Shown here piece by piece: positions 1 through 62,639 of a stretch of DNA of 64,000 nt. A program made the translations under genes and the position numbers. The DNA is taken from positions 208,605 through 272,604 of the forward strand of contig CAWGBX010000005.1 of the NCBI GenBank assembly GCA_963820925.1, written 5' to 3'. The notes below the pieces were generated by a model, which was not told the DNA's origin, ran no database searches, and was given only the letters and a program-made list of their open reading frames with translations. Origin of the DNA: an uncultured Acidobacteriota bacterium (lineage in GTDB: Bacteria > Acidobacteriota > Terriglobia > Terriglobales > Acidobacteriaceae). Every line of letters begins with the position of its first letter. Position 1 is the stretch's first letter.

Positions 1-83
1 TCGGAATTCAAATGCCATAGCGGCCAGATCAGGTTTGTTGACTCGCATGGTGGTTATCTGCATCTGTTCCGTAGGAGGATCTG

Positions 84-896
84 ATGAACTTACTGCGCTG
101 CACAGCCATCGCGCTCGTGGGTTTACTCGTGATCCCACTGGCGCGGGTGGACGCAGGTTCTGAAAAAGTCGTCTTTCCGGCGAACTTCAAGTCCGGCGTG
201 CTCTATAACGTGATTGATCGCGACGACCAGAAGGAAGTTCATCAGCAGTACACAAGTCGTGAAGCCATCGAAGCCGCCAAGGCAGGCAAGCCCCTGCCCC
301 CTGGCACGGTCATTACTAGCGCTAACTACAAAGCCGTGCTTGACCCGCAGGGCAGTCCGATAAGAGATGCCAAAGGCAATTTTGTGGCAGGTGAGTTGGA
401 TCGGGTTGTCGTGATGGAAAAGCGCCCGGGCAGCGGAGCCGCGTACCCGGAGAATCTACGCAACGGCGACTGGGAGTTCGCTGCCTTCACAGCAGACGGC
501 AAGTTCAACCCTCAGGCCCCGGCCAGGGAGGTCTGCATGGCGTGCCACAAGCCTCATGAGCGGCTTGACTACGTGAAAACCTACTTCGCCATGGCCGGGA
601 AGAGAGTCGAGACCAACCCGGCACCCGTTCCTTCCGGCGCGGTGGTCGCAACCGTCGTGCGCTTTGCCGTGAATCCATCCCGTGTCATCGTGCAAGCGGG
701 AACACCCGTGACGTGGATCAATATTGACGACCCGCCGCACCAGTTTCTCGTGGAAGGCGCGGGCGTGAAGACGGAGTACCTGTTGAAAGGGCAAACAGGA
801 ACCGTCGTCCTGAAGGAACCGGGAGTTTATCAGTATGGAGACACTTTCTATCCAGCTGTCGAATCTCTCAGAGGTGTCATTGAGGTGCGCAAGTAA
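84..896 (+). CDS. Secreted c-type cytochrome, cytochrome P460/c'-beta-like, with C-terminal beta-sandwich domain
   Basis: N-terminal signal peptide (MNLLRCTAIALVGLLVIPLA); single CXXCH heme motif (CMACH) near residue 150 preceded by NGDWEFAAFTADGKF, a pattern I recall from the P460 family; no second heme motif; C-terminal ~90 aa without Cys. Confidence 0.5.
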   Translation: MNLLRCTAIALVGLLVIPLARVDAGSEKVVFPANFKSGVLYNVIDRDDQKEVHQQYTSREAIEAAKAGKPLPPGTVITSANYKAVLDPQGSPIRDAKGNFVAGELDRVVVMEKRPGSGAAYPENLRNGDWEFAAFTADGKFNPQAPAREVCMACHKPHERLDYVKTYFAMAGKRVETNPAPVPSGAVVATVVRFAVNPSRVIVQAGTPVTWINIDDPPHQFLVEGAGVKTEYLLKGQTGTVVLKEPGVYQYGDTFYPAVESLRGVIEVRK

Positions 897-1119
897 TACT
901 TCAGAAAGCGATTCCCGTACGGCGCTGCAACCGTTGATTTGCAGATTCTGGTCGCGTAATGGGCTACCCGGAATGAACCCTTAAGTTAGCGCCTATGGGG
1001 CGCCGCCCCCACCTGGAAATTAACCTATCGTATTGGAGGGAATTCTGTAGAATACGCAGTTGGAACGGGCCTCGGTTAGCGTCCGATCCCTATTTTCGGT
1101 CTTTGGGAGCGGAAGTCGA

Positions 1120-2163
1120 GTGGCTGACACTGCAACGATTCGAGAGGGCAGTTCGCGCGCTCCGCAAGCGATCTCAGAAATCGATGTGCTTTGGATCACG
1201 GCCGGCCTTGGCTGCGACGGCGACACGATTGCGATGACAGCGGCAACGCAGCCGAGTATCGAAGATATTGTTCTCGGGGCAATGCCCTGGATCCCCAAAG
1301 TACACTTTCACAACCCCTTCCTCGCCCTTGAGAACGGGGACGATTTTTTGAAACGTTTCCACCTTGCGGCCAGCGGTAATTTGTCTCCCTTCATTCTGGT
1401 GATCGAAGGATCGATTCCGAACGAGCACAATAAGGAGGAAGGCTACTGGGCTTCCCTCGGTACCGACCAGAAAACCGGACAACCGATTACTACCTGTGAG
1501 TGGATCGATCGGCTCGCGCCGCGGGCCTGGGCTGTGATGGCGGCAGGAACTTGTGCGACCTACGGCGGCATCCATGCGATGGAAGGGAATCCAACCGGTT
1601 GCATGGGTCTTCCTGACTATCTTGGATGGCAGTGGAAATCCACAGCGAACATCCCGATTGTGTGCGTCCCTGGATGTCCGGTTCAGCCTGACAATTTCAT
1701 GGAGACGCTGCTCTATCTTCTGTATATGGCGGCCGGGCGCGCCCCGATGATTCCGCTCGACGACGCGCTACGTCCAACATGGCTGTTTGGCGCAACGGTT
1801 CACGAAGGCTGCGATCGAGGCGGTTACTACGAGCAGGCGGAGTTTGCCGAGGAATACGGGTCGCCTCTGTGCATCGTGAAGCTAGGCTGCTGGGGGCCGG
1901 TGGTTCAGTGTAATGTGGGGAAGCGTGGCTGGATGGGCGGGATTGGCGGCTGTCCCAACGTTGGTGGTATTTGCATCGGATGCACGATGCCGGGGTTTCC
2001 CGACAAGTTCATGCCCTTCATGAATCAGCCGCCGGGTTCGTTGCTATCTTCGAATGCGGTGATGACCTATGGCAGGGCGATCCATGCGCTGCGCAGGTTT
2101 ACTCAGGCCTCGCTGAATAAAGAGCCGAGTTGGCGGCGCAAGAGTGTGAAGACGAACGATTAG
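1120..2163 (+). CDS. [NiFe]-hydrogenase small subunit paralog (orphan, no adjacent large subunit), group 1h/5-like, no Tat signal
   Basis: WITAGLGCDGD...GTCATYGG...GCPVQPD...CIGCTMPGFPDKFMPF motifs; ~75-80% identical by eye to the second small subunit at 5697-6761. ORF track starts at a TTG (1060); I prefer the in-frame GTG at 1120 (GGAAG 4 nt upstream), which gives the same 25-aa lead before WITAG as the paralog. Confidence 0.8.
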   Translation: MADTATIREGSSRAPQAISEIDVLWITAGLGCDGDTIAMTAATQPSIEDIVLGAMPWIPKVHFHNPFLALENGDDFLKRFHLAASGNLSPFILVIEGSIPNEHNKEEGYWASLGTDQKTGQPITTCEWIDRLAPRAWAVMAAGTCATYGGIHAMEGNPTGCMGLPDYLGWQWKSTANIPIVCVPGCPVQPDNFMETLLYLLYMAAGRAPMIPLDDALRPTWLFGATVHEGCDRGGYYEQAEFAEEYGSPLCIVKLGCWGPVVQCNVGKRGWMGGIGGCPNVGGICIGCTMPGFPDKFMPFMNQPPGSLLSSNAVMTYGRAIHALRRFTQASLNKEPSWRRKSVKTND

Positions 2164-2186
2164 AATTGCTGAGCTGAGGTATCAGA

Positions 2187-3800
2187 ATGGTGTCCGGGAC
2201 TAGCATCGAAGCCGTATCAGATGCCGCTCAACCCGATTGGAATCAGATGGACGCCATGACCGCTCCGGAGGCCGAAGCTCTTCTCGCCGACCTTGCCGCG
2301 ATATTTCTCAGCAACGCTGCCCAACTAGCGCCAACGGCCGACGCACTCACTGGAGAAGGTCCAGAAGAGCAGTTGCCGAATGTTGACGCCATTTATAGAG
2401 CGCTGGTCGAGCAGATTCCCGCAGTTGTTTTCATGGCCCACTTGGATCGAGGCATCGGCGAAGCTTACGTCAGCCCTCAAATTGAAGCGAGTCTGGGTTT
2501 TTCGCAGGAAGAATGGCTGGAAGATCCCATTCGCTGGTATCAGCAGATCCACCCTGACGACAAACAACGTTGGAGTGTCGAGGCGGCGCAGATGTTTCTT
2601 ACAGGAACGGCACTCCGTTCCGCATATCGCGTCCTGGCGCGGGATGGCAGGGTAGTTTGGTTTCACTGCGAAGCCAAGATGATCCGGCGGAAGAATGGCC
2701 GGCCTTGGTTTATCCATGGCATCGCGTTTGACATTACTGAGCTTAAGCGGACAGAAGAAGCATTGCAGGAGGAACGTAATGTTGTTTCGGCCATCCTGCA
2801 CACGGTCGGCGCTTTGGTTGTGGTCCTTGATCCGCAAGGTCGAATCGTCCGCTTCAATCGAGCTTGTGAGCAGGTCTCGGGTTATTCCTTCCCGGAGGTC
2901 AAGGAGAAATACTTTTGGGATTTGTGCGTGCTTCCGGAGGAGGCAGAGCGCTTCAAGATCATCGTCGAACAGTTGCGAGTGGAGCACAGCACCAGGGACT
3001 ATGAGACTTCGTGGGTCGCCCGGGATGGCTCGCGCCGGCTGATTGCATGGTCAAGTACGATCCTTCCCGGAGAGGATGGAACCCCTGCCTACATTATTGC
3101 AACCGGGATCGACATCACTGAACGCAAACGGCTGGAGAAGGCAATTCTGGAGATTAGCGCCGAAGAGCAGCGTCGCATCGGGCAAGATCTGCACGACGGA
3201 TTAGGGCAACACCTGACCGGCATTGCGTTCATGAGCAAGGTTCAGGAACAGAAGCTAGCGGAGAAAGGTCTTGCGGAGGCGGCCGAAGCCGCCAGAATCG
3301 TCGGCTTGGTCAACGAGGCCATCAATAAGACAAGAGAATTGGCCCATGGCCTTCTCCCCGTAATTTCGGATGCTCACGGTCTTATGTCGGCGCTGAAACG
3401 TTGGGCGGCCGAAGTGGAAGACTTGTTCAATATTTCCTGCTGCTTGCGAATTGACGAACCGGTTCTCATTCACGATACCAATGTGTCGACTCATCTTTAT
3501 CGCATTGCTCAAGAGGCTGTGAACAATGCACTCAAGCACGGGCAGGCGAAGAACATCATCATTAGTCTTTTCGCCAGGAACGATTACGGCACAATGAGAA
3601 TTGAAAACGACGGCTCAGGCCTGCCAGAGCCGTCGACACCGGGCTCGGGCATGGGTATGCAAATCATGAACTATCGGGCCAGAATGATTGGCGGATCCCT
3701 TAAGGTGGAAAGCGGTAGAGCTCAGGGAATCACGGTCACGTGCTTGTTTCCACTCCCCAAGGGCAAGGAAGGGTTGAAGACGGACGCCTATGATCACTAA
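2187..3800 (+). CDS. Cytoplasmic sensor histidine kinase with two PAS domains, HisKA_3 (NarL-family partner type) and HATPase_c
   Basis: H-box HDGLGQHLTGIAF, N-box NALKHGQA, G-boxes ENDGSGLP/GMGMQIM; PAS-like blocks; no TM segments; 24 nt downstream of the orphan small subunit. Confidence 0.85.
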   Translation: MVSGTSIEAVSDAAQPDWNQMDAMTAPEAEALLADLAAIFLSNAAQLAPTADALTGEGPEEQLPNVDAIYRALVEQIPAVVFMAHLDRGIGEAYVSPQIEASLGFSQEEWLEDPIRWYQQIHPDDKQRWSVEAAQMFLTGTALRSAYRVLARDGRVVWFHCEAKMIRRKNGRPWFIHGIAFDITELKRTEEALQEERNVVSAILHTVGALVVVLDPQGRIVRFNRACEQVSGYSFPEVKEKYFWDLCVLPEEAERFKIIVEQLRVEHSTRDYETSWVARDGSRRLIAWSSTILPGEDGTPAYIIATGIDITERKRLEKAILEISAEEQRRIGQDLHDGLGQHLTGIAFMSKVQEQKLAEKGLAEAAEAARIVGLVNEAINKTRELAHGLLPVISDAHGLMSALKRWAAEVEDLFNISCCLRIDEPVLIHDTNVSTHLYRIAQEAVNNALKHGQAKNIIISLFARNDYGTMRIENDGSGLPEPSTPGSGMGMQIMNYRARMIGGSLKVESGRAQGITVTCLFPLPKGKEGLKTDAYDH

Positions 3801-4479
3801 ACAGGTCAACAACAATGTCACAGCCAGAAAGAAAACAGTATTCGTGGTTGACGACCATCCCATCGTTCGACAAGGGTTGACGCTGCTGATCAATCAGGAA
3901 GCCGATCTGACTGTCTGTGGCGAAGCCGAAGAGATGCACTCGGCGTTGTCAGCGATTCAGGCGACCAGACCAGACATCCTTATTGTGGACATCTCGCTCA
4001 ATGGCCCGGATGGATTGGAACTGCTCAAGAATATCCGGTTGACGTCTCCTCGTCTGCCGGTTCTCATCCTGTCTATGCACGATGAATCGATCTATGCGGA
4101 ACGGGCATTGCGGGCGGGTGCGAACGGGTACATCATGAAGCAGGAGGCGACCGAGAAAGTGCTGGTGGCGCTACGTCGTATCCTGAGCGGCGAGATTTAT
4201 GTCAGTGACCGGATCGCCAACAGCATGCTGCGACATTACGTTCGCGGGGCCGGTTCTTCAGAGCACTCGTCGATCTCAGACCTTACCGATCGTGAATTGG
4301 AAGTCTTCCGGCTGATCGGGGAAGGCCAGGGAACCCGCCAGATCGCGGAGGCTCTGCACCTCAGCGTTAAAACTGTCGAGTCCTACCAGGCGCACATTAA
4401 AGAAAAACTCTCGCTGCGAAGTGCTCGGGAACTGGTCCAGCGAGCGGTTCAATGGAATGTCCGCGAGAAGACGGCATGA
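3790..4479 (+). CDS. Response regulator, NarL/FixJ family (REC + LuxR-type HTH)
   Basis: VFVVDDHPIVRQGL...DILIVDISLNGPDGLEL receiver with conserved Asp; C-terminal LTDRELEVFRLIGEGQGTRQIAEALHLSVKTVESY LuxR HTH; overlaps HK stop by 11 nt. Confidence 0.85.
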   Translation: MITKQVNNNVTARKKTVFVVDDHPIVRQGLTLLINQEADLTVCGEAEEMHSALSAIQATRPDILIVDISLNGPDGLELLKNIRLTSPRLPVLILSMHDESIYAERALRAGANGYIMKQEATEKVLVALRRILSGEIYVSDRIANSMLRHYVRGAGSSEHSSISDLTDRELEVFRLIGEGQGTRQIAEALHLSVKTVESYQAHIKEKLSLRSARELVQRAVQWNVREKTA

Positions 4480-4575
4480 ACAGGTTTGGATGTTGTTCTA
4501 AGACTCTTCAAGTAAACCAGCTCTAGCAGCGTAGATGCCCCGGCGGAAGCGGCTTGTGTAGCGTCGTCCCGCAAG

Positions 4576-4597
4576 CGTGCTTCCACAAGGAAGCACG
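4576..4597 (+). terminator. Perfect 9-bp stem/4-nt loop hairpin (cgtgcttcc-acaa-ggaagcacg) downstream of the response regulator; candidate intrinsic terminator or regulatory hairpin (no U-tract)
   Basis: Inverted repeat read directly in the intergenic 4480-4633. Confidence 0.3.
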
Positions 4598-4633
4598 GGC
4601 ACCGGGCGCAGGTGCTAAGCTGTTTCGCTATAT

Positions 4634-5311
4634 ATGGCAAGCGTACTCCTTCTGTTCAAGTTCTTTGCGCTTGGTGTCAGTGCGCTCCTGCCGGTGATTA
4701 ATCCGCTGGGGTCGGCATTGGTGTTCCTCGGCTTCGTGGGGAACGCGCCCGAATCCGTTTTCCGGGACTTAGCGCGCAAGATTGCGGTCAGCACCGCGAT
4801 CTTCATGCTGGTGATCGAGTTGGTGGGAACCGGGCTGTTGGAGTTTTTTGGAATTTCGCTTCCCGTAGTGCAGGTTGCCGGAGGACTGGTGCTGGCCAGC
4901 ATGGGATGGAACCTGCTCAATCAGCAGGAAAGCACGGCCAATCCCGATCGGGCAGCAGTGAGGGAGGATAACTTCGGATCGGTGGAGCAGAATGTTTTCT
5001 ATCCGCTCACATTTCCGGTTACTGTCGGCCCGGGCTGCATCGTGGTCATGCTGACTCTTACGGCGCACGCCTCGGTGAAGGGGAGTGTGCTGGCCAATGT
5101 CATCGCTCACCTGGGGATTTTCCTGGCTGTGGTGGCTTTGAGCGTGACCGTCCTTATCTGCTACCGTTACGCGCCGAAGATCACAGAACGAATTTCACCT
5201 CATACGGCGCATGGTATCTTGCGCATCATCGCGTTCGTGCTTCTCTGCATCGGAGTGCAGATCACGTGGAACGGCGTTGAAACACTACTGAAGGGGGTGC
5301 TGTTTTTGTAG
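4634..5311 (+). CDS. MarC-family (UPF0056) integral membrane protein
   Basis: 225 aa, ~6 predicted TM segments, N-terminal FALGVSALLPVINPLGSALVFLG resembles the MarC family signature. Confidence 0.5.
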   Translation: MASVLLLFKFFALGVSALLPVINPLGSALVFLGFVGNAPESVFRDLARKIAVSTAIFMLVIELVGTGLLEFFGISLPVVQVAGGLVLASMGWNLLNQQESTANPDRAAVREDNFGSVEQNVFYPLTFPVTVGPGCIVVMLTLTAHASVKGSVLANVIAHLGIFLAVVALSVTVLICYRYAPKITERISPHTAHGILRIIAFVLLCIGVQITWNGVETLLKGVLFL

Positions 5312-5696
5312 AGGGCTGGTTGCTCTACCCTTATCCTTAATAACCCCCCGCTCAGCGCTTGTGCCCACGAAGGGTTCAGATGATCCATTTGTGAGCCGTG
5401 CCTGCCTTGCAGTCTCTTCGGTGCTGTCTTCCTCTCCTTCAGGTCGGATTTTCTCTGATTAGGGGAATCCCTGATACGGTTCGTGGGACTTCCCTGGAGA
5501 AATAAAACAGGGCTGCCGCTCTTGTAACAGTCTCGCAATAGGACGATTCTGTCTGCGATTTGAATTTCGAATCGCAGCGATCAATTTACTTGTAATTGCA
5601 AGGTTTGGGTGAGGTTGGATGGCAAGAGTCGTCGGCATCAGACGATGCGAAGCGTCTGTCTGTGATCAAGTTTGAATGGAAGGGAGCAATCCATCT

Positions 5697-6761
5697 ATGG
5701 GAACAGCTACGGTTCCATATGGCCGGTCTACGCAAAAAGCACCGGCGGTCAAAGAGGTGCACATAGTCTGGATCACCGCCGGCCTCGGCTGTGACGGAGA
5801 TTCGGTCTCGATTACTGCGGCCACGCAACCCAGCATCGAAGACGTATTATTGGGCGCAATCCCTGGATTGCCCAAGGTGCACCTGCACAATCCCGTGCTT
5901 GCCGTCGAAGTTGGCGATGACTTCATGAAGTTTTTCTATCAGGCATGGGAAGGCAAGCTCGATCCTTTCGTTCTGGTGGTGGAAGGCTCGATCCCGAACG
6001 AGTCGATCAAGAAAGAAGGATATTGGGCGGCATTGGGAACTGACCCCGAAACCAAACAGCCAATCACCACCAATGAGTGGATCGACCGGTTGGCTCCGAA
6101 GGCGTTGGCGGTGATTGCCATTGGAACCTGCGCCACTTACGGCGGAATTCACGCCATGGAGGGGAACCCCACCGGCTGCATGGGTCTTGCTGATTACCTG
6201 GGTTGGGAGTGGCGGTCCAAAGCCGGGTTGCCGATCGTGAACGTTCCGGGATGTCCGGTGCAGCCCGACAACTTCATGGAGACGGTGCTATACCTGCTGT
6301 ATCAGGTGGCAGGGTTGGCCCCGATGATTCCTTTGGATGATCAACTGCGCCCAACCTGGCTGTTCGGCAGTACCGTGCATGATGGTTGCGACCGAGCCGG
6401 GTACTACGAGCAAGGTGATTTCGCAGAGGTCTATGGCTCTCCCAAGTGCATCGTAAAACTCGGATGCTGGGGACCGGTGGTCAACTGCAACGTACCCAAG
6501 CGCGGATGGATGGCCGGGATTGGCGGCTGCCCCAACGTGGGCGGCATCTGCATCGGTTGCACCATGCCGGGCTTTCCGGACAAGTTTATGCCGTTCATGG
6601 ATGAGCCGCCGGGGGCAAGGGTTTCGACCGGCAGCATCGGCGTGTATGGGCGTGCGATCCGGGCGTTGCGTTCAATCACTCAAAGCACGGTAAACAAGGA
6701 ACCCAAATGGCGGCATCCCCGCGCGGAGCTGACCACCGGTTACCATCCAAGATCTTATTAG
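5697..6761 (+). CDS. hhyS: [NiFe]-hydrogenase small subunit, group 1h/5 (high-affinity uptake hydrogenase), no Tat signal
   Basis: Same conserved Cys blocks as 1120-2163; ATG at 5697 has RBS GGAAGGGAG (the track ATG at 5676 lies inside the RBS); directly followed by the large subunit. Confidence 0.85.
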   Translation: MGTATVPYGRSTQKAPAVKEVHIVWITAGLGCDGDSVSITAATQPSIEDVLLGAIPGLPKVHLHNPVLAVEVGDDFMKFFYQAWEGKLDPFVLVVEGSIPNESIKKEGYWAALGTDPETKQPITTNEWIDRLAPKALAVIAIGTCATYGGIHAMEGNPTGCMGLADYLGWEWRSKAGLPIVNVPGCPVQPDNFMETVLYLLYQVAGLAPMIPLDDQLRPTWLFGSTVHDGCDRAGYYEQGDFAEVYGSPKCIVKLGCWGPVVNCNVPKRGWMAGIGGCPNVGGICIGCTMPGFPDKFMPFMDEPPGARVSTGSIGVYGRAIRALRSITQSTVNKEPKWRHPRAELTTGYHPRSY

Positions 6762-6807
6762 GAGCATGGCTGAGAAGCGCGACTGAGAAAGCAAAGGAGC
6801 GATCGCT

Positions 6808-8604
6808 ATGAGCACCATCACTGCACCGACGAAAGACGTCCCCAGCAAATCGAAAAAGCTGGTGGAGATGAATTGGGATCCGATCACCCGCATCGTAGGC
6901 AGCCTGGGTATCTTTACCAAGATTGATTTCGACGCTCGCAAGGTGGCCGAGTGTCACAGCACATCTTCCATCTTTCGCGGATACAGCATTTTTATGAAGG
7001 GGAAAGATCCGCGTGACGCGCACTTCATTACCAGCCGTATCTGCGGCATCTGCGGCGACAACCATGCAACCTGCGCAACTTATGCGCAGAATATGGCTTT
7101 TGGGGTCAGGCCGCCGCACATCGCGGAATGGATCGTTAATCTTGGCGAAGCGGCCGAATACATGTTCGATCACAACATCTTCCAGGACAACCTGGTCGGG
7201 GTTGACTTCTGTGAGCAGATGGTCAAGGAAACCAACCCCAAGGTTCTGGCGAAAGCCGAGTCAACTCCTGCGCCACATTCCAACGAGCACGGCTTCCGCA
7301 CCATCGCGGATATCATGCGGGCGCTCAATCCCTTCACAGGATCCTTTTATCTTGAAGCTCTGCAGATGAGCCGCATGACCCGGGAGATGTTCTGCCTGAT
7401 GGAAGGCCGTCACGTCCATCCCTCAACGCTTTATCCGGGCGGAGTAGGGACAGTGCCGACGGTGCAGCTGTTCACCGACTACATCGTCAGACTGATGAAA
7501 TACGTCGAGTTCATGAAGAAGGTTCTCCCGCTGCACGACGACCTGTTCGACTTCTTCTACGACGCGTTGCCGGGTTATGAGGAGGTCGGACGTCGCCGCG
7601 TTCTATTGGGATGCTGGGGGTCCTTTAACGATCCCGAGCACTGTGACTACACCTACAAGAACATGACGAACTGGGGCCGGAAGATGTTTGTTACGCCCGG
7701 TGTGGTTGTCGATGGCAAGCTGGTAACAACCGACCTGGTGGACATCAACCTGAATATTCGGATCCTGTTGGGCAGTTCTTACTATGACGACTGGAAGAAT
7801 GCAGAGACGTTCGTGAAAACCGATCCGCTGGGAAACCCGGTCGATAAGAACCATCCCTGGAATCAGACTACGATTCCGCGGCCGCAGAAGCGAGATTTCT
7901 CCGGCAAATACACCTGGGTGATGTCACCTCGCTGGTTCGACAAACGCACAGGAGATCATCTTGCCCTGGATACGGGCGGCGGGCCGATTGCCCGGCTGTG
8001 GGCAACGGCGCTCGCGGGGTTGGTGGATATCGGCTACATCAAAGCTACCGGCAAGAGCGTGAAGATCTACTTGCCGAAAACCATGTCAAAGCCCGAGGTC
8101 GAGTTCGAGTGGAAGATCCCGCAGTGGAGCAATGCTATTGAGCGCGACCGGGCTCGCACGTACTTCCAAGCCTACGCAGCCGCGTGTGCTCTGCATTTCG
8201 CGGAGAAGGCGCTGGAAGAACTTCATGCTGGCAAGACCAGAACCTGGTCAGAATTCAAGGTGCCGGAAGAGGCCATCGGCTGCGGTTTCCACGAAGCCGT
8301 CCGAGGCGTGCTTTCGCATCATGTGGTGATCCGCAAAGGCAAAATCGCCAACTATCATCCTTATCCTCCGACGCCTTGGAACGCCAATCCGCGGGACATT
8401 TACGGCACTCCGGGGCCGTATGAGGATGCGGTGCAAAATACGCCCATCTTCGAAGAAAACGGACCGGAGAAGTTCAAGGGCATAGACATTATGCGCGCGG
8501 TGCGGAGCTTTGATCCGTGTTTGCCTTGCGGCGTGCATATGTATCTGGGTGATGGAAAGGTTTTGAAGACCCACCATTCCCCGATGTTCGGTGTTCAGCC
8601 TTGA
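6808..8604 (+). CDS. hhyL: [NiFe]-hydrogenase large subunit, group 1h/5 (high-affinity H2-oxidizing)
   Basis: 598 aa; L1 motif TSRICGICGDNH and C-terminal SFDPCLPCGVH (Ni-Fe ligands), which I recall as group 5/1h signatures; RBS AAAGGAG upstream. Confidence 0.9.
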   Translation: MSTITAPTKDVPSKSKKLVEMNWDPITRIVGSLGIFTKIDFDARKVAECHSTSSIFRGYSIFMKGKDPRDAHFITSRICGICGDNHATCATYAQNMAFGVRPPHIAEWIVNLGEAAEYMFDHNIFQDNLVGVDFCEQMVKETNPKVLAKAESTPAPHSNEHGFRTIADIMRALNPFTGSFYLEALQMSRMTREMFCLMEGRHVHPSTLYPGGVGTVPTVQLFTDYIVRLMKYVEFMKKVLPLHDDLFDFFYDALPGYEEVGRRRVLLGCWGSFNDPEHCDYTYKNMTNWGRKMFVTPGVVVDGKLVTTDLVDINLNIRILLGSSYYDDWKNAETFVKTDPLGNPVDKNHPWNQTTIPRPQKRDFSGKYTWVMSPRWFDKRTGDHLALDTGGGPIARLWATALAGLVDIGYIKATGKSVKIYLPKTMSKPEVEFEWKIPQWSNAIERDRARTYFQAYAAACALHFAEKALEELHAGKTRTWSEFKVPEEAIGCGFHEAVRGVLSHHVVIRKGKIANYHPYPPTPWNANPRDIYGTPGPYEDAVQNTPIFEENGPEKFKGIDIMRAVRSFDPCLPCGVHMYLGDGKVLKTHHSPMFGVQP

Positions 8605-8749
8605 TCGAATGGGAAACTGATCATGCTGGACATTTGGGGAAGCGAGGGTATATTGGTTGCCTTTACTGCTTTGGGGAACTCTGACCAGTACAAATTTTGG
8701 CTGGGCTGCACAAACGTGAGCGCCCGCGCCTACATTGGCTGGAAACACT

Positions 8750-9316
8750 ATGCCGGATGACAAGGATTTCCAGGTTAAGGTCCAGCGCATCGGCGAACTA
8801 GTCGGTGAGTTGGAGAACATCGCGGATCCAGAGGCTCGGGCAAGCGCAAAAGCTTTGGTGCAATTGCTTCTTGACTTGCATGGCGCTGGCTTGGAACGGA
8901 TCATGGAAATCGTCGCGAAGGACGGCGATCCAGGCCAGCACACGATCGACGACTTGGGTTGCGATCCGCTGGTCAGCAGCCTCCTGGTCCTCTATGGCCT
9001 TCACCCCTTGGATTTGGAGAGTCGGGTAGCACAGGCGGTGGAGCGAGTTCGGCCGCAAGTGCGCAAGAGCGGAGGCGAACTAGATCTGCTCGGCATCGAG
9101 AGCGGCGTGGTCCGGTTGCAGCTTCAAGTTACCGGGCACGGCTGCGCCTCCACGGGAAAGACGCTTCAGAAGTTAGTCGAGGACTTATTATACGAAGCCG
9201 CACCGGACATGAATCGCTTGCTGATTGAAGGGCTCGAAGAAGCGGCAGGTTCCTCCGGCTTTGTGCCGCTCGGTAAGCTGGGCGGCGTGAACGCAACCGC
9301 ATCAGTGCAGGAGTAA
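8750..9316 (+). CDS. NifU/Nfu C-terminal-domain-like protein (possible HhyE-like hydrogenase-associated Fe-S/assembly protein)
   Basis: C-terminal LDLLGIESGVVRLQLQVTGHGCASTGKTLQKLVEDLL resembles the Nfu fold (V..L.G.C..C with only one Cys retained); position immediately after hhyL; track TTG start at 8735, ATG at 8750 preferred. Confidence 0.45.
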   Translation: MPDDKDFQVKVQRIGELVGELENIADPEARASAKALVQLLLDLHGAGLERIMEIVAKDGDPGQHTIDDLGCDPLVSSLLVLYGLHPLDLESRVAQAVERVRPQVRKSGGELDLLGIESGVVRLQLQVTGHGCASTGKTLQKLVEDLLYEAAPDMNRLLIEGLEEAAGSSGFVPLGKLGGVNATASVQE

Positions 9317-9336
9317 CCGTTCGTGGCGTTACGAAA

Positions 9337-10026
9337 TTGGCGCCGGGTCAGAGAATTGTTCGTGAGCCGATGATAAATGCAGTCCAGCCGGGATTCGAGA
9401 ACGCATTTGGAGCGCTCCGCCAGTTCATCCGGCGCAAGCGGAATGTGGAGCGTTGTGAGCTGTGCAGCGCTGAAGTCGCAGCCGATCATCCGCATCTGAT
9501 TGAACCGGGGAGCCGAAAGCTGCTGTGCGCCTGTAACGCCTGCGCAATCCTATTCAGCGGGATGGGGACAAAATATAAGCGTGTTCCCCGTCGCGTCCTC
9601 GCCCTGGCAGATTTTCGCCTCTCGGACGGCCAGTGGGACAGCCTGATGGTACCGATCAGTATGACTTTCTTCTTCCGTAGCACTCCGGATGCCAGGGTGG
9701 TCGCGTTCTATCCCAGCCCGGCGGGGGCGACTGAGTCGCTGCTGCCGCTCGAGACCTGGCAAGACATCGAGGACGCCAATCCTGTGCTCAAGGAAATGGA
9801 ATCTGATGTTGAAGCTCTGCTCGTCAATCGCGTGGGCCATGTCCGCGGATTTGCTGCTCCCGAGTACTATGTGCTCCCTATCGACGAGTGTTACAAACTG
9901 GTCGGCCTGATTCGCGCCAACTGGCGAGGGCTTTCCGGAGGAGCCGAGGTCTGGCAGGAGATCGGCCGTTTCTTCGACGGACTGAAAGACCGAGCCACGC
10001 TGGTCAGAGAGGAAGCGAATGCCTGA
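9337..10026 (+). CDS. Hydrogenase-cluster conserved hypothetical protein with CxxC...CxCxxC motif (putative metal-binding)
   Basis: CELCSAEV...LLCACNAC; translationally coupled into the next gene (8-nt overlap); no recognisable catalytic domain. Confidence 0.6.
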   Translation: MAPGQRIVREPMINAVQPGFENAFGALRQFIRRKRNVERCELCSAEVAADHPHLIEPGSRKLLCACNACAILFSGMGTKYKRVPRRVLALADFRLSDGQWDSLMVPISMTFFFRSTPDARVVAFYPSPAGATESLLPLETWQDIEDANPVLKEMESDVEALLVNRVGHVRGFAAPEYYVLPIDECYKLVGLIRANWRGLSGGAEVWQEIGRFFDGLKDRATLVREEANA

Positions 10027-10669
10027 CCTGAGCTTTCAAATCGAGAAAGCGGAACCACAGCGCTTCACGGTTGCGCCGACCCTCCTGTTCAAACTCCGAA
10101 TTACGAACACGGTTGCGAATGAAACCGTCCATTCGGTCGCATTGCGCTGCCAGATCCAGATTGAAGTAACGCGGCGGCAGTATAGTGCCGGGGACCAAGA
10201 GCAACTGCGTGACCTTTTTGGGGAGACGGAACGCTGGGGCCAGACTCTGAAAACCATGCTGTGGACCCATGCCAGCGTGGTCGCGCCCGCATTTCAGGAC
10301 ACCGCCGTAGTGGATCTTCCTGTGCCTTGTACCTTCGACTTCAATGTGGCTGCGACTAAGTACTTCCATGGCCTTGCGGATGGCGACGTCCCCCTCTGTT
10401 TTCTGTTCAGCGGAACAGTTTTTTATGCAAATGGTGACGGAGCACTGCAAGTAGGCCCGATCCCTTGGGATAAGGAAGCCCACTTCCGGCTTCCGGTGAA
10501 ATCGTGGCGCGAAATGATAGACATCTACTATCCCAATAGCGCATGGCTCTGTTTGCGCCGGGATGTTTTCGAGCGACTCTATCAGTACAAGGTTGAGCAC
10601 GGCATTCCGACCTGGGAGCAAGCGTTGGAGAGCATGCTTCCTGCGCTGGAAGAGGCAGTGAAGCGATGA
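10019..10669 (+). CDS. Hydrogenase-cluster conserved hypothetical protein
   Basis: ATG with RBS GAGGAAG; ATGA overlap with downstream gene; diverse composition, no shadow-ORF signature. Confidence 0.6.
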   Translation: MPDLSFQIEKAEPQRFTVAPTLLFKLRITNTVANETVHSVALRCQIQIEVTRRQYSAGDQEQLRDLFGETERWGQTLKTMLWTHASVVAPAFQDTAVVDLPVPCTFDFNVAATKYFHGLADGDVPLCFLFSGTVFYANGDGALQVGPIPWDKEAHFRLPVKSWREMIDIYYPNSAWLCLRRDVFERLYQYKVEHGIPTWEQALESMLPALEEAVKR

Positions 10670-11724
10670 ATACGAAATCAGTCAACGCAATCGCGAATGC
10701 CGTGCTCTACGAGGGGTACATGCTCTACCCCTACCGCCCTTCCTCGGTGAAAAACCGTCAGCGGTTCAACTTCGGCGTGCTTTATCCCAGGTCCTACAGT
10801 GATACACAGACTGGTTCAGATGTCTGCAGCATGCAGACCGAGTGCCTTGTCCAAGGTTCTTTTCTCACTGCAGTCGAGGTAAGAGTGCGTTTCCTCAAGA
10901 TGGTCGCACGTTCGGTTCGCAAGGTAACAGAACCAATGCAATCACCGGATGTCGGTCTCGGTTTCGAGCCCGTTCCGCTTCTCGAGGTCGACGGCAAGGT
11001 ATTCGCGCCCTGGCAGGAGGCAATCGAATGTGAAGTAACCGTACCGGCTTGCAATCTGGATTCGTTGACTGAAGCGCCGCTTGAACGGAAATTCGAATTT
11101 CCCCCGAAAGAGGAAACGGAATTCTTACGCGACGCGACCGACCGCCTCGTAGGCCTGATTGCAAGGAGGCAGGAATCGGTCCAAGGGATAGTTGAGATGG
11201 TGGCGTTGCGCGTTGCCGGCGAACTGTTCAAAGTCCACGTGCGGGTGAAGAACCTCACCTCTTTTGGAGACGACTCCGTCCAGACCAGCCGGGACACAGC
11301 TTTGATGCGATCGCTGGTCTCCACTCACATCCTGCTAGGCGCAGTGGATGGTCGGTTTGTCTCTCTGCTGGAGCCGCCCGACAATCTGAGAGATCTCGCC
11401 ACGAGCTGCCAGAATGTCGGAGCCTGGCCGGTGTTGGTCGGCGCCGAAGGAGAGCAGGACACAATACTTGCCTCACCCATCATTCTCTACGATTACCCGC
11501 AAATTGCGCCGGAAAGCCCCGGCGACTTGTTCGACGGAACGGAGATTGATGAGATTCTCGCGTTGCGCATTCTGACCATGACCGACGACGAGAAGCGCGA
11601 AATGCGTAGCACGGACGAGCGTGCCCGCAAAATGCTCGACAGAACGGAAACTCTGCCGATGGAGCAGCTGTTGAAGCTCCACGGTACGTTGAGGGAATTG
11701 CGTTCGTTGAAGGAGATGCCATGA
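10666..11724 (+). CDS. Hydrogenase-cluster conserved hypothetical protein (352 aa)
   Basis: Start/stop overlaps (ATGA) with both neighbours indicate a coupled operon. Confidence 0.6.
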   Translation: MNTKSVNAIANAVLYEGYMLYPYRPSSVKNRQRFNFGVLYPRSYSDTQTGSDVCSMQTECLVQGSFLTAVEVRVRFLKMVARSVRKVTEPMQSPDVGLGFEPVPLLEVDGKVFAPWQEAIECEVTVPACNLDSLTEAPLERKFEFPPKEETEFLRDATDRLVGLIARRQESVQGIVEMVALRVAGELFKVHVRVKNLTSFGDDSVQTSRDTALMRSLVSTHILLGAVDGRFVSLLEPPDNLRDLATSCQNVGAWPVLVGAEGEQDTILASPIILYDYPQIAPESPGDLFDGTEIDEILALRILTMTDDEKREMRSTDERARKMLDRTETLPMEQLLKLHGTLRELRSLKEMP

Positions 11725-12575
11725 ACGAATGGGAATGGCAGCTCCTCGAAGCCAAAAAACCGGTGGACGACCTGCGTATTTCGGATATCGAGGTGCGACC
11801 CGGCAGCCGGGTTAGATTGTGCCCGCGAGCGGGCGGCGACATCATGGATATTGCGCTCGCGGGTAAGACCGCCGTTATCGAGTCGATCGAACAGGACTAT
11901 GACGGTAAGGTCCACGTTTGCGTTGTCATCGATGAGGATCCGGGGCGGGACATCGGCCTGATGCGACAACCAGGTCACCGTTTCTTCTTCGATCCGGACG
12001 AAGTTGAACCGCTCCCCCGCGGTGACGATGAAGATGCCGAGCGGGCGAAGATGCCCCGGATCCTCATCGCTGGCATTGGAAATATATTTCTCGGGGATGA
12101 CGCTTTTGGTATCGAGGTGGTGCGGCGCTTGTCGACACAAGAGCTGCCACAGAACATTCGAGTGACTGACTTCGGCATCCGGGGTTACGACTTGGCCTAC
12201 GCGCTACTCGATGGATACGACACCACCATCCTGGTTGACGCGTGTCCGCGCGGCGAACCGGCGGGCACGCTATATGTGATTGAACCCGACGTGAGCGAGT
12301 TTGGTGGGCCAGAAGAGCGGCAGAATGCGGTCGAAGCTCATAGCATGAACCCCTTGAATGTGCTGCGTCTCGCGACCTCTATGGGCGGTCCGCTGAAGCG
12401 AGTCCTACTGGTTGGATGTGAGCCGGGAACCCTCGGTCCGGAGGAAGGTCAGATGGGGCTGAGTGAACCGGTCGAGGCTGCCGTCGATGAAGCGGTGAAA
12501 TTGGTGAAATCGCTGATTGCCAAGATACTGAATGGGGATGAATCCGGTACAAAGAACGTAAACGACATTCAATGA
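11721..12575 (+). CDS. Hydrogenase maturation endopeptidase (HupD/HyaD/HycI family) with ~115-aa N-terminal extension of unknown function
   Basis: C-terminal half ILIAGIGNIFLGDDAFGIEVV...ILVDACPRG...HSMNP matches the large-subunit C-terminal processing protease; N-terminal 115 aa has no match I recognise. Confidence 0.75.
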   Translation: MNEWEWQLLEAKKPVDDLRISDIEVRPGSRVRLCPRAGGDIMDIALAGKTAVIESIEQDYDGKVHVCVVIDEDPGRDIGLMRQPGHRFFFDPDEVEPLPRGDDEDAERAKMPRILIAGIGNIFLGDDAFGIEVVRRLSTQELPQNIRVTDFGIRGYDLAYALLDGYDTTILVDACPRGEPAGTLYVIEPDVSEFGGPEERQNAVEAHSMNPLNVLRLATSMGGPLKRVLLVGCEPGTLGPEEGQMGLSEPVEAAVDEAVKLVKSLIAKILNGDESGTKNVNDIQ

Positions 12576-13750: not shown

Positions 13751-14887
13751 TTGGGTATGAAGTTCGTGGACGAGTTTCGCGATCCTGAAGTCATCACCAA
13801 GACGTCGGAAGAAATCCGCCGGCTGGCCGATCCCAATCGCCATTACCGCATCATGGAAGTGTGCGGCGGCCATACGCACGCGATTTACCGCTTTGGCCTG
13901 AAAGATCTGCTTCCGTCGAACATAGAACTTATTCACGGCCCGGGTTGCCCAGTCTGCGTGCTCCCGATGGGACGAATCGACGACGGTCTGTCCATCGCGC
14001 AACAGCCCGACGTTATCTTCGCCGCATTCGGCGACATGATGAGGGTCCCGGGCACGCAAGGCAGTCCTCTCGAGCATAAGGCCCGCGGGATGGATGTTCG
14101 CATCGTCTATTCACCTTCTGACGCGCTCAAGCTTGCTCAAGTAAATCCGGACAAGCACGTCATGTTCTTTGCTATCGGATTTGAGACCACGGCTCCGTCA
14201 ACCGCGCTGACACTGGTGCGAGCGAAGACTCAGGGCATCCACAATTTTTCCGTGTTCTGTAATCACGTAACCATTATTCCGGCAATCCGGGCGATTCTGG
14301 ATTCTCCAGACATGCGTATTGACGCGTTCATCGGGCCCGGGCACGTATCGACCGTGATTGGTTGCCGGCCTTATGAATGGATCGCCAAGAACGAAAACAA
14401 ACCGGTCGCCGTCTCCGGCTTCGAGCCGCTGGATATTCTGCAGTCCATTGTCATGGTTCTGCGTCAACTGAAGGCGGATGAGGCCAGGATCGAAAATCAG
14501 TACAAGCGCGTAGTGCCGTGGGAAGGAAATCGGGCTGCGCTCAGGGCCATGGCAGACGTTTTCGAGTTGCGTCCCTATTTTGAGTGGAGAGGACTCGGCT
14601 TCATCTCTCAGTCAGCCCTGCGCATCCGGGAAACGTATGCAGAGTGGGATGCCGAGCAGCGTTTCCACATTCCCGGAGTGCGGGTGACCGATCCCAAGGC
14701 TGCGCAATGCGGGGAAGTGTTGAAAGGTGTGCTCAAACCTCATCAATGCAAGCTCTTTGGCAAGGAGTGTACTCCTGAACATCCGATTGGTGCACTCATG
14801 GTTTCATCAGAGGGATCATGCGCAGCGTACTTCAACTACGAACACCGCAAAACGGCAATGGTGCCCAGCATAGCGTCGGTGGCCTGA
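13751..14887 (+). CDS. hypD: Hydrogenase maturation factor HypD
   Basis: CGGHTHAIY, GPGCPVCV and C-terminal CPVC-type motifs; 378 aa. Confidence 0.9.
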   Translation: MGMKFVDEFRDPEVITKTSEEIRRLADPNRHYRIMEVCGGHTHAIYRFGLKDLLPSNIELIHGPGCPVCVLPMGRIDDGLSIAQQPDVIFAAFGDMMRVPGTQGSPLEHKARGMDVRIVYSPSDALKLAQVNPDKHVMFFAIGFETTAPSTALTLVRAKTQGIHNFSVFCNHVTIIPAIRAILDSPDMRIDAFIGPGHVSTVIGCRPYEWIAKNENKPVAVSGFEPLDILQSIVMVLRQLKADEARIENQYKRVVPWEGNRAALRAMADVFELRPYFEWRGLGFISQSALRIRETYAEWDAEQRFHIPGVRVTDPKAAQCGEVLKGVLKPHQCKLFGKECTPEHPIGALMVSSEGSCAAYFNYEHRKTAMVPSIASVA

Positions 14888-14961
14888 ACGCTGCCGAGGC
14901 CGATGGCTCGGCCATCGACAACAACGCACCGAAGGTGCACTTCCGCGAGCCGCAAATCGAG

Positions 14962-15954
14962 ATGGCTCACGGAGCCGGAGGTAAGGCCAGCCGCCGGCTC
15001 GTAGAAGGTCTTTTTGCTCCGCTTCTTTTTGTGCCGTCCTCAGAACCGCTGGGAGATGCGGCCCATCTGGATTTCAACGGTACCCGGATCGCCATTACCA
15101 CTGATAGTTTCGTAGTCAAGCCCCTGAGTTTTCCTGGCGGCTCGATCGGAGAACTCGCAGTGAACGGAACCGTGAACGATCTGGCGGTTTCGGGAGCGAG
15201 AGCGGAAGCCATGGTAGTCACTTATGTGCTCGAAGCTGGGCTGCCGACGCCTGTGCTCGAGGCCGAAGTACGCGCAATGGGGAACGCAGCACGCAACGCC
15301 GGTGTCGCGATCGCGGGTGGCGACACAAAAGTTGTCGAGCACGGCAAAGCCGATTCTATGTACATCACGACGACCGGAATTGGGCGACCTCTGCATTGGT
15401 TGAATATCGATCCGAGATCCGTTCGTCCGGGCGACAGGATTCTGCTCTCCGGCCCAATCGGCGATCACGGTATCACTATTCTTCTGGCGCGTGGGGAACT
15501 CGATCTTGAAGCTGACCTTCGTTCTGACACGCGCTCCGTACTTCCTCTGGTTGAAGCTCTGGTGAAGGCGGCAGGTCCCGGCATCCGCTGGATGCGCGAC
15601 CCGACGCGCGGCGGTGTGGCCACTTCCCTAAACGAACTTGTTCGCGACTGCGGGTGTGGAATTGTGCTCCTGGAGGAAATGATTCCAATACATGATGCTG
15701 TTCGTGGCGCTTGCGAGTTGTTGGGGCTCGATCCATTGCATATTGCAAATGAAGGCCAATTCCTCGCCGTAGTGGCCCCGGAATACGCGGACGCCGCCCT
15801 CAACGCCTTGACTCTTGCTCCTGGTGGCGAGGATGCGCAGATGATTGGGGAGGTGCGTGAACAGCCGTCCGGCGCGGTCTTGGTCACGACACGTTACGGT
15901 GGGAGCAGGATTATAGATATGCTGGTCGGCGATCCGCTCCCGCGCATTTGTTAG
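14962..15954 (+). CDS. hypE: Hydrogenase maturation factor HypE (carbamoyl dehydratase)
   Basis: MAHGAGGKAS N-terminus and C-terminal ...PRIC; track ORF starts at 14818 overlapping hypD; ATG at 14962 gives canonical 330-aa HypE. Confidence 0.85.
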   Translation: MAHGAGGKASRRLVEGLFAPLLFVPSSEPLGDAAHLDFNGTRIAITTDSFVVKPLSFPGGSIGELAVNGTVNDLAVSGARAEAMVVTYVLEAGLPTPVLEAEVRAMGNAARNAGVAIAGGDTKVVEHGKADSMYITTTGIGRPLHWLNIDPRSVRPGDRILLSGPIGDHGITILLARGELDLEADLRSDTRSVLPLVEALVKAAGPGIRWMRDPTRGGVATSLNELVRDCGCGIVLLEEMIPIHDAVRGACELLGLDPLHIANEGQFLAVVAPEYADAALNALTLAPGGEDAQMIGEVREQPSGAVLVTTRYGGSRIIDMLVGDPLPRIC

Positions 15955-15961
15955 AAACGCA

Positions 15962-17164: not shown

Positions 17165-17387
17165 ACTCTACGGTACAGCGCGCTGCCCGCATACTCAGGA
17201 GATGCGGGAATGGCTGGAGTGGCAGCGCCGCGATTTCGTTGAGTACGATGTCGAGGCCGACCTTGCCGCCCGTCACCGCATGCGCGGGGTAGCGGCTGGA
17301 CACCGAAGTGTTCCTGTGTTGGTCGAAGATGGCAAGGTGGTTCAAATCGGCTGGCAGGGCCGTAGTTGCGTGGTGGATGTGGAGTAA
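17151..17387 (+). CDS. Glutaredoxin-like small thioredoxin-fold protein (single-Cys CPHT motif)
   Basis: LELYGTARCPHTQEMREWLE...VPVLVEDGKVVQIG; GTG at 17151 with RBS GGAGGT; track ORF 17016 overlaps the previous gene for 150 nt. Confidence 0.5.
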   Translation: MAKLELYGTARCPHTQEMREWLEWQRRDFVEYDVEADLAARHRMRGVAAGHRSVPVLVEDGKVVQIGWQGRSCVVDVE

Positions 17388-17389
17388 CG

Positions 17390-62100: not shown

Positions 62101-62639
62101 AACTCTATAGCAACGGCAGCTTCGCTACGACTGTGGGACCGATGACGGCGGCGCGCGCTTATCACACTGCCACGCTGCTCGCCAGCGGACAAGTGCTTTT
62201 CGCCGGCGGTGTGGATGCCTCCGGGAACGCCCAAAACACAGCCGAGCTTTACGATCCAACTCTCGGCACTTTCACTGCGACCGCGGGAAATATGGTCCGT
62301 GCGCGTCAAGATCAGGTTGCGGCTCTCCTGCCGGATGGAACCGTCCTGATCGCTGGCGGCTACAACGCAACCAATCAGCAACTCTCTGATGCCGAGATTT
62401 TCAATCCCATTACCGGCACATTCGACAGCAACGCCAACATCTGTTGCCACGGCGCGCCAGTTTGCCACAGCGACCGCACTGCAAGACGGCCGCGTTCTGA
62501 TCGCAGGCGGATTCAACGGCACAACGCATCGGCAACTGCGCAGATTTTTTGCCAATGGCAGCTTCGTCACCCCCGAGATGCCAAAAGATCCATTTCATAC
62601 GACACAAACTTGTTTAGTGAATCCGTGAATTTACAGTGA
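47121..62639 (+). pseudogene. Giant (~5,100 aa if contiguous) cell-surface lipoprotein: lipobox, tandem Ig-like (He_PIG/BIG-like) repeats, then Kelch/beta-propeller-like repeat region; split by 8 or more single-nt frame disruptions
   Basis: Lipobox LLLTGCAAF at start. Track ORFs 47121-47687, 47351-48058, 47967-54572, 54424-54891, 54885-62639 and 62389-62628 carry consecutive pieces of the same repeat protein in different frames. Removing two A residues at ~54727 and ~54757 gives contiguous ARYNHTATLLPNGTVLVAGGNNGGTIAASEVWDTGGF. Confidence 0.7.
48830..53330 (+). repeat. About nine tandem, highly similar ~486-498-bp (about 163-aa) coding repeats inside the giant gene (unit ...ASSTNPLYGATVNLTPTF.NAVSASVGTTQGG.DISSSPTSGT.IPTAAIT..KTYWLRATNAAGD..DSSVTVTPQTVVVN.I.PA.PTRTVNS.TTF.TTATGGVTN.I.WSA.AG.MNA.TG.WTAPA.AGNVTITATS.DD..KTATT.V.VVLA)
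   Basis: Landmark tcga-tca(c/g)cgc recurs at 48836, 49321, 49816, 50311, 50803, 51294, ~51790, 52288, 53288; minus-strand shadow ORFs repeat with the same period. Confidence 0.8.

Follow-up and report, generated by a model that had tools for sequence, protein, structure and literature searches.

A conserved orphan group 1h [NiFe]-hydrogenase small-subunit paralog, encoded with a PAS histidine kinase and a NarL-type regulator, as part of a candidate control module for hhySL in Terriglobia

We analyzed a 64,000-nucleotide (nt) stretch of DNA from an uncultured Acidobacteriota bacterium of the family Acidobacteriaceae (contig CAWGBX010000005.1, positions 208,605 to 272,604, forward strand), referred to below as the window. 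It carries the structural genes of a group 1h [NiFe]-hydrogenase, hhyS and hhyL, and upstream of them a second gene for a hydrogenase small subunit. This orphan small-subunit paralog (oSSU; the "hhyS homolog" of the literature) is followed by the genes of a soluble sensor histidine kinase and a response regulator, and the three genes are called the trio here. Genes were taken from the open reading frame (ORF) listing and from Pfam scans, and those of the hydrogenase cluster all lie on the + strand. The features are as follows:

84-896, + strand: secreted single-heme protein of 270 amino acids (aa), with a signal peptide, one CxxCH motif (CMACH) and a Cytochrome_P460 domain (E 8e-20)
1040-1057, + strand: conserved promoter-like element GAATTCTGTAGAATACGC of the oSSU operon (TAGAAT at 1048-1053), a putative promoter
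1120-2163, + strand: oSSU, orphan group 1h [NiFe]-hydrogenase small-subunit paralog, 347 aa
2187-3800, + strand: soluble sensor histidine kinase, 537 aa, with PAS_3, PAS, HisKA_3 and HATPase_c domains (Pfam)
3790-4479, + strand: NarL/LuxR-type response regulator with REC and GerE domains (Pfam)
4634-5311, + strand: MarC-family membrane protein
5460-5474, no strand: 15-bp palindrome TAGGGGAATCCCTGA, candidate operator in the hhyS promoter region
5483-5497, no strand: second, degenerate palindrome-like site GTGGGACTTCCCTGG, about 22 bp (two helical turns) past the first, of putative function
5676 or, more likely, 5697 to 6761, + strand: hhyS (Pfam), presumed regulated target
6808-8604, + strand: hhyL (Pfam), presumed regulated target
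downstream of hhyL, + strand: NifU-like, DUF5947 and DUF6084 genes

All genes lie where the original prediction, made from the sequence letters and an ORF list, had placed them. Its description of a soluble double-PAS kinase with an overlapping LuxR-type regulator agrees with the Pfam domains and with an overlap of 11 nt between the two genes; the regulator gene ends 1.2 kb 5' of hhySL. Two of its distances had to be corrected. The gap between oSSU and the kinase gene is 23 nt, not 24 nt, and the 160 nt given between the cytochrome and oSSU fits only the mechanically called TTG start at 1060 (163 nt from the cytochrome stop), the distance to the GTG at 1120 being 223 nt. TTG 1060 was dropped in favor of GTG 1120 on account of a conserved ribosome-binding site, a GTG-GCT-GAC context and the upstream TAGAAT element; both the ribosome-binding site and this start context recur in related loci. 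For hhyS, the ATG at 5676 is probably not the real start, and the second ATG at 5697 is favored, where the conserved HhyS N-terminus begins, preceded by GGAAGGGAG.

A single HhyL match, that of hhyL itself, was found by tblastn in the 64 kb. A second large-subunit gene just outside the window was looked for on a metagenome contig of the Joint Genome Institute (L001), which encodes the same proteins across the cytochrome, oSSU and the kinase and reaches 3.5 kb further upstream. It carries instead genes for an aldehyde dehydrogenase (Aldedh, opposite strand) and a dioxygenase (Dioxygenase_C). Since 3.5 kb of unrelated genes precede it, oSSU does not belong to a second hydrogenase operon that the window edge cuts off. 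No large-subunit gene lies beside oSSU in the window, on L001 or in about 85 related loci, in which the kinase is always the next gene; the paralog is thus an orphan, as had been proposed.

The adjacency of a small-subunit paralog and a kinase, which the original prediction had suggested seeking in other genomes, was recovered from both sides. A scan with a kinase alignment (one genome per species) gave at least 509 genomes with a kinase relative, and the best 80 of these were studied; all belong to Terriglobia/Acidobacteriota and most are metagenome-assembled. The closest kinase relatives of the window are 85-91% identical and come from metagenome-assembled genomes, and among the 120 kinase matches listed, all are close Terriglobia relatives. 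An oSSU-clade gene was found by tblastn directly 5' of a kinase bearing the first PAS domain (PAS-A) in 79 of the 80 loci, one copy being frameshifted, and hhyS-hhyL-NifU-DUF5947 start 0.2-5 kb past the regulator gene in about 66 of them. Approached from the oSSU side, all five loci (P0004, P0018, P0058, P0105 and P0120) consist of oSSU, a PAS_3-HisKA_3 kinase, a REC-GerE regulator, hhyS, hhyL, NifU and DUF5947. The order hhyS-hhyL-NifU-DUF5947-DUF6084 seen in the window is conserved downstream of the trio. Across loci the gap between oSSU and the kinase gene ranges from 11 to 246 nt, the commonest kinase-regulator spacing is an overlap of 4-11 nt, and oSSU heads the kinase-regulator operon in essentially every case, never occurring among structural genes. 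Because the trio order is widespread while the P460 and MarC genes are not conserved, oSSU, kinase and regulator are regarded as a conserved unit and a predicted single operon.

Two of the loci have an unusual oSSU. In L035, a kinase-regulator pair (13927-16176) has no oSSU upstream; the oSSU lies 1.7 kb downstream of that pair, beside a second kinase that shares the PAS-A region only (64% identity over aa 28-204, about 25% elsewhere), an arrangement that looks like a natural domain-swap variant. In L040, the oSSU (8854-9938) is split into three frames and represents either a pseudogene or a long-read assembly error.

The oSSU protein matches Oxidored_q6 and NiFe_hyd_SSU_C (E 1.7e-21 and 4.1e-22), has no signal peptide and is 73% identical to the HhyS encoded in the window. 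Among proteins of solved structure it comes closest to HofK of Cupriavidus necator, a group 1h small subunit (5AA5_A, E 1.4e-174), with the next match far below. Database relatives number in the thousands, and the best 120 are 81-90% identical, much closer than the hhyS product of its own genome. Residues are numbered below as in HofK, which coincides with the window oSSU counted from GTG 1120. When aligned to HofK, oSSU keeps the iron-sulfur (FeS) ligands C32, D35, C145, C186, H228 and C231 as well as C251, C257, C264, C278, C285 and C288, and the group 1h proximal motif C-D-G-D, Asp ligand included, is present. The original prediction that all FeS-ligating Cys blocks are kept is right as to the blocks and wrong as to the residues, since one proximal ligand is Asp, as in all group 1h enzymes. 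The comparison of ligand patterns that it had proposed revealed no difference between the two small subunits of the window: the twelve residues are invariant across 40 sequences (38 oSSU-clade matches plus these two), and the same columns are conserved in the consensus of 78 oSSU sequences. Ligands can be assigned to the three individual clusters by homology.

When 78 oSSU and 70 HhyS sequences are aligned with HofK, oSSU and HhyS separate as reciprocally monophyletic groups, with oSSU outside the catalytic HhyS clade and on a stem branch about twice as long as that of HhyS. The oSSU sequences are 71% identical both to acidobacterial HhyS and to HofK, and HhyS and HofK share 78%. Among 232 strongly conserved columns, 208 are the same in oSSU and HhyS and 24 carry fixed differences. 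In the direction HhyS to oSSU these are S36T, V37I, S38A, G57W, L58I, V67F, V92I and I104N; L137W, L178I, N182C, V197L, Q203M, V204A, L207R and Q216A; and A234G, K250L, N263Q, P267G, E303Q, V309L, R322H and T331S. The changes at 36-38 come straight after the proximal ligands C32 and D35, and C182 sits four residues ahead of the ligand C186. In addition, oSSU has an extra conserved Cys126, at a position variable in HhyS, and lacks the N-terminus (VPYGRsTQK) and the C-terminal tail (LTTGYHPrsY) that are both conserved in HhyS. Residues 253-292 of oSSU are nearly totally invariant, and the C-terminal helix (residues 307-331) is under tighter constraint in oSSU than in HhyS.

Strong purifying selection acts on oSSU, whose median pairwise ratio of nonsynonymous to synonymous substitution rates (dN/dS) is 0.05, against 0.036 for HhyS, 0.033 for HhyL, 0.09 for the kinase and 0.07 for the regulator. 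Near-invariant positions make up 65% of oSSU, 73% of HhyS, 76% of HhyL, 48% of the regulator and 34% of the kinase. AlphaFold2 (AF2) models of oSSU and the kinase have predicted local distance difference test (pLDDT) scores of 62 and 64 and are usable for secondary structure only, in oSSU for its N-terminal flavodoxin-like domain. By the usual topology of this fold rather than by coordinates, W57 and W137 would lie at strand N-termini on the edge away from the proximal cluster, and T36, I37, A38, F67, N104, C126 and C182 would lie on the side of the cluster and the large subunit.

The kinase, in which no membrane segment is apparent, is divided as follows according to Pfam and AF2 secondary structure:

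aa 26-45: N-terminal helix
aa ~63-190 (nt 2373-2756): PAS-A
aa ~191-316: PAS-B
aa 317-395: HisKA_3
aa 431-525: HATPase_c

Its most conserved domain is PAS-A, with 75 of 128 positions invariant, which places it above the ATP-binding domain. PAS-B is dispensable, as two orthologous kinases (L093 and L094) of 406 aa have PAS-A only, and two others (L089 and L091) have three PAS domains; PAS-A is retained and highly similar in all of them. The short amphipathic N-terminal helix is conserved as well, with A29, E30, L33, L36, A37 and F40 invariant. The catalytic H336, N446/N447 and the G-box glycines are invariant, so that the N and G boxes are intact. Each PAS domain contains a single invariant Cys (C161 in PAS-A, C227 in PAS-B), and an internal FeS site like that of NreB is therefore unlikely. 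The nearest solved relatives of the regulator are NarL (1A04, E 7.5e-30) and DevR/DosR (3C3W, E 8e-29), and HisKA_3, HATPase_c, Response_reg and GerE all exceed their Pfam cut-offs, as expected of a NarL/FixJ-family two-component system. None of the kinase, the regulator and oSSU reaches a named equivalog cut-off in NCBIfam.

We then consider the DNA upstream of the two operons. Allowing up to two substitutions, GTAGAATACG is present ahead of the oSSU start in 50 of 78 loci, at a distance of 41-105 nt in most of them, and k-mers from this region are found in 33-41 of the 78 loci, compared with at most 15 in shuffles. A simple sigma-70 and terminator scan of positions 1-6900 gave matches no more numerous than in shuffles.

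A k-mer survey upstream of hhyS yielded a different element, the palindrome with the consensus T[AC][GA]GGGA-W-TCCC[CT][GT]A, a 7-1-7 inverted repeat. It lies 110-255 nt ahead of hhyS in 66 of 72 loci. In 1.6 Mb of related loci it has 69 matches; 65 of them precede hhyS by no more than 320 nt, and three of the remaining four fall between the regulator gene and either hhyS or a contig end. In loci with insertions between the regulator gene and hhyS, it is hhyS that the palindrome accompanies. Dimeric regulators of the NarL/LuxR type (NarL/DevR) bind palindromes, and a 7-1-7 inverted repeat fits such binding. The palindrome is likely to be the operator of the trio's regulator, a reading suggested by adjacency. 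Only 1 of 78 loci has it upstream of the oSSU operon, so autoregulation of that operon through the palindrome was rejected.

A column-wise consensus anchored on the palindrome shows, after the second site, a conserved A-rich block, GAGAAATAAAACAGGG, and then a CCCTTG block. A sigma-54 reading of the GG...CTTG block was dropped, as its spacing is one base off GG-N10-GC and a NarL-type regulator lacks the AAA+ domain needed. Past the palindrome, the hhyS leader (5510-5700, about 150-200 nt) is moderately structured, with a minimum free energy of -66 kcal/mol (z = -2.65), a perfect 8-bp hairpin at about 5553-5577 and the blocks CCCTTGTAAC and CCCGCTTGTG conserved across loci; it has no Rfam match, and a scan of positions 1-12000 of the window gave zero matches to Rfam altogether. 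A near-palindrome resembling the core of the hhyS operator, CGGGAATCCCG, is present at 18079-18089 inside a long ORF (17366-19663). It is probably due to chance, because 8 core matches were found in the window and 10 are expected from shuffles.

The arrangement described here is already on record. Giguere et al. 2020 (PMC8027828) reported an hhyS homolog that precedes the group 1h structural genes by about 3.6 kb and lies beside a kinase and a regulator, and the statement of the original prediction that it had not been described does not stand. That homolog is about 70% identical to the hhyS product of the same genome, and each genome has a single large subunit (PMC8027828, PMC5900883); Eichorst et al. 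2018 (PMC5900883) likewise list one large subunit per strain, homolog-carrying isolates included. As cited in Giguere et al. 2020, a Pyrinomonas methylaliphatogenes locus was noted by Greening et al. (2015, PNAS). In strain KBS 83 the homolog is expressed in exponential phase and rises 13-fold in stationary phase, and in exponential phase transcripts of hhyL and the homolog were found with hhyS undetected (PMC8027828). The published locus and the window share the same layout of an extra hhyS, a kinase and a regulator. They differ in that the window comes from another uncultured Terriglobia lineage and carries a MarC insertion after the regulator gene, ahead of hhyS. The published reports give no clade analysis, operator, distribution or mechanism, and our literature searches turned up no functional study of the locus; it stands as an annotation-level remark and was never characterized. 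What is new in the present study is the scale of conservation, the oSSU clade with its diagnostic residues, the pattern of constraint on PAS-A, the kinase N-terminal helix and the oSSU C-terminal helix, and the candidate operator.

Three known systems bear on how the trio may work. In the group 2b systems HoxBC-HoxJ-HoxA of Cupriavidus necator and HupUV-HupT-HupR of Rhodobacter, an FeS small subunit, a soluble PAS kinase and a regulator likewise control an uptake hydrogenase. The small-subunit C-terminal region mediates kinase contact in these systems, and the C-terminal helix under extra constraint in oSSU matches that region. They have a dedicated large subunit (HupV/HoxC), whereas the trio has none and only the catalytic HhyL is encoded nearby. 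Moreover, the small subunit of the trio belongs to group 1h and not 2b, its kinase has HisKA_3 instead of HisKA, and its regulator is of the REC-GerE (NarL/LuxR) type without an AAA+ domain, in contrast to the NtrC-type sigma-54 activator of group 2b. On this comparison of domains, the trio is analogous and not homologous to the group 2b H2-sensing systems, in line with the original prediction of a resemblance to HupUV-HupT-HupR logic without homology. Signaling from the HoxBC/HupUV small subunit to a PAS kinase is an established precedent (PMC13098282).

DosS/DosT-DosR (DevST-DevR) also combines HisKA_3-family kinases with a NarL-family regulator. The Dos kinases sense through heme-binding tandem GAF domains, whereas the kinase of the trio has no GAF domain and possesses PAS_3 and PAS together with a separate FeS protein; it matches DosT weakly and in the ATP-binding domain only. 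The half-site GGGAC of the DosR palindrome resembles the GGGGA half-site upstream of hhyS. A 2026 paper records DosST/DosR as controlling the group 1h Hhy of Mycobacterium smegmatis and the starvation induction of Hhy as still unexplained (PMC13098282). NreB-NreC of Staphylococcus likewise pairs FeS sensing by a cytoplasmic PAS-HisKA_3 kinase with a NarL-type regulator, the FeS signaling role of oSSU being putative. NreB holds its [4Fe-4S] cluster through four Cys residues in its own PAS domain, and the clusters of the trio are on a separate hydrogenase-derived protein.

We consider it very probable that the trio is a regulatory module for hhySL with oSSU as its FeS input, because of its near-obligate linkage, the constrained FeS chain, the conservation on the sensor side and the hhyS-specific palindrome. 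That oSSU serves as the signal-relay partner of the kinase, one of two roles offered by the original prediction, appears to be the best-supported reading. In the mechanism we propose, oSSU would be the signal-input subunit, an HhyS-derived FeS "wire" of three clusters, and would dock on the kinase; candidate contacts are the oSSU C-terminal helix on one side and, on the other, PAS-A, the kinase N-terminal helix or both. The redox occupancy of the oSSU clusters would set the activity of the kinase, and a dimer of the phosphorylated regulator would control transcription of hhySL from the 15-bp palindrome, which it would bind about 200 nt ahead of hhyS. A complex of oSSU with HhyL would act as a sensory hydrogenase that reports H2-derived electron flow. 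The contact between oSSU and the kinase, the binding of the regulator to the palindrome, the pairing with HhyL and the sign of the regulation are steps that we infer. Taken as a whole, a dedicated hhy regulator with oSSU as signal input, probably borrowing HhyL, is our best explanation, with a chance that we put slightly below even.

The step in which oSSU borrows HhyL for its electrons is tentative in itself. HhyL is already O2-insensitive and of high affinity, and a dedicated sensor large subunit would therefore be unnecessary; sharing HhyL is the favored route, being the simplest way in which duplication of hhyS could give rise to an analogue of HoxBC-HoxJ. It is further favored by the retention in oSSU of about 90% of the conserved HhyS columns and by the KBS 83 transcripts, as a shared HhyL would account for the transcription of hhyL and the homolog without hhyS in growing cells.

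Several observations weigh against this mechanism. The rationale for an H2 sensor is weakened by the near-constancy of atmospheric H2 and by the known behavior of group 1h enzymes, for which starvation or hypoxia, and not H2, is the stimulus. In a mirror-tree analysis, nonsynonymous (dN) distances of oSSU follow those of the kinase (r 0.80, partial r 0.59), and the partial r between oSSU and HhyL is 0.02 once the kinase is controlled for; these partial correlations are weak evidence, because the pairs are non-independent and HhyL barely varies. Residues 50-95 are relaxed in oSSU and invariant in HhyS (e.g., H62, L63 and H64), and the fixed changes on the proximal side could mean that the large-subunit interface has been lost or remodeled. 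The palindrome could belong to another regulator, and one locus (L016) has the trio with neither hhySL nor the palindrome within 10 kb downstream. Finally, the homolog transcript was undetected in E. aggregans although hhySL was induced (PMC8027828).

In a rival explanation, oSSU would never bind HhyL, and its kinase-bound FeS clusters would respond to O2, to reactive species or to how reduced the electron-acceptor pool is, so that hhy is switched on in starvation or hypoxia. We judge this rather unlikely, and still the strongest of the alternatives. It would agree with the lack of a cognate large subunit, with a divergence of oSSU that tracks the kinase and not HhyL, with the relaxed residues 50-95 and with the loss of both HhyS tail motifs. 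The clade-fixed changes by the proximal cluster, the new invariant Cys at 126 and 182 on the cluster side and the new Trp at 57 and 137 on the opposite edge of the N-terminal sheet point the same way. H2-independent control is also the known pattern for group 1h enzymes; heme-based DosS/DosT upstream of DosR and FeS-based NreB upstream of NreC offer parallels, and the Hhy of M. smegmatis is under an O2/redox-sensing system of the same kinase and regulator families (PMC13098282). On the other hand, three clusters and about 90% of the conserved HhyS columns seem more than a simple redox switch needs, a partnerless small subunit would bare a large hydrophobic interface together with the proximal cluster, and hhyL and the homolog are transcribed together in exponential-phase KBS 83. 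Whichever of the two applies, we hold it fairly probable that the hhy sensor of Terriglobia is built on a small subunit without a large subunit of its own, either with HhyL time-shared or as a free-standing three-cluster FeS sensor on a PAS kinase.

The linkage and conservation evidence for a regulatory module applies equally to an assembly checkpoint, in which free oSSU sets the kinase and mature HhyL titrates oSSU (or the reverse), matching hhySL expression to the matured large subunit. The single shared large subunit and the near-restriction of the palindrome to hhyS would suit such feedback as well. It is nevertheless improbable: control by small-subunit titration is not known to have a precedent in hydrogenases, and a pure binding role would not need the strict retention of FeS ligands.

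Given its intact FeS chain, its high similarity to HhyS and its expression in KBS 83, oSSU might instead be an alternative catalytic subunit forming an isoenzyme with HhyL that feeds another acceptor, merely co-located with the regulator. We give this a similarly low probability, since oSSU heads the kinase-regulator operon and is never among the structural genes, and its transcript was undetected in E. aggregans actively consuming H2. The original prediction had offered electron transfer toward the cytochrome as a second role of this kind. This is rejected because the adjacency of the P460 gene is not conserved and oSSU has its own promoter-like element; the P460 protein, found beside oSSU in none of about 85 related loci, was ruled out as its electron-transfer partner, and secretion is predicted for it, in contrast to oSSU, which lacks a signal peptide. 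Among 88 loci, tblastn with the P460 protein matched only L001, where the sequence is the same, and the exact protein is on record on 2 contigs only. Its C-terminus has a weak cupredoxin-like domain (E 1e-4, below the Pfam cut-off), and it has no NCBIfam match. In related loci the gene 5' of oSSU encodes a multicopper oxidase, a TonB-type outer-membrane protein, a MatE protein or a deaminase. By this comparison of loci, the P460 gene is an incidental neighbor outside the hydrogenase module.

That oSSU is a remnant of a second operon cut by the window edge, or a decaying pseudogene, has a vanishingly small probability, as nothing beyond its position near the window start speaks for it and both are ruled out, the former by the Aldedh and Dioxygenase_C genes upstream on L001 and the latter by a dN/dS of 0.05, 65% invariant positions across 78 species and an intact frame and ligands.

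A few further features of these loci were recorded. The MarC gene is found between the regulator gene and hhyS only in the window and its three closest relatives (L009, L011 and L014); in other loci this interval is either plain intergenic DNA (0.2-0.6 kb) or holds unrelated inserts of 1-5 kb, which suggests an insertion hotspot. The NifU-like gene of L005-L008 (14754-15671) encodes 305 aa with a weak Rieske-domain match, and the version in the window encodes 193 aa. The window also contains two very large ORFs on the + strand, at 47967-54572 (2201 aa) and 54885-62639 (2584 aa).

Group 1h hydrogenases are the main biological sink of atmospheric H2, and Terriglobia rank with the most abundant bacteria of soil. 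The trio is a concrete and widespread candidate regulator that makes the control of atmospheric H2 oxidation in Acidobacteria directly testable. If true, a sensor of either kind, with HhyL time-shared or free-standing, would represent a signaling architecture so far undemonstrated for any hydrogenase and the first dedicated group 1h regulator with a defined operator. If oSSU shares HhyL or senses alone, it would also provide a new way of making a hydrogenase module into a signaling device, of relevance to engineered H2 or redox biosensors.

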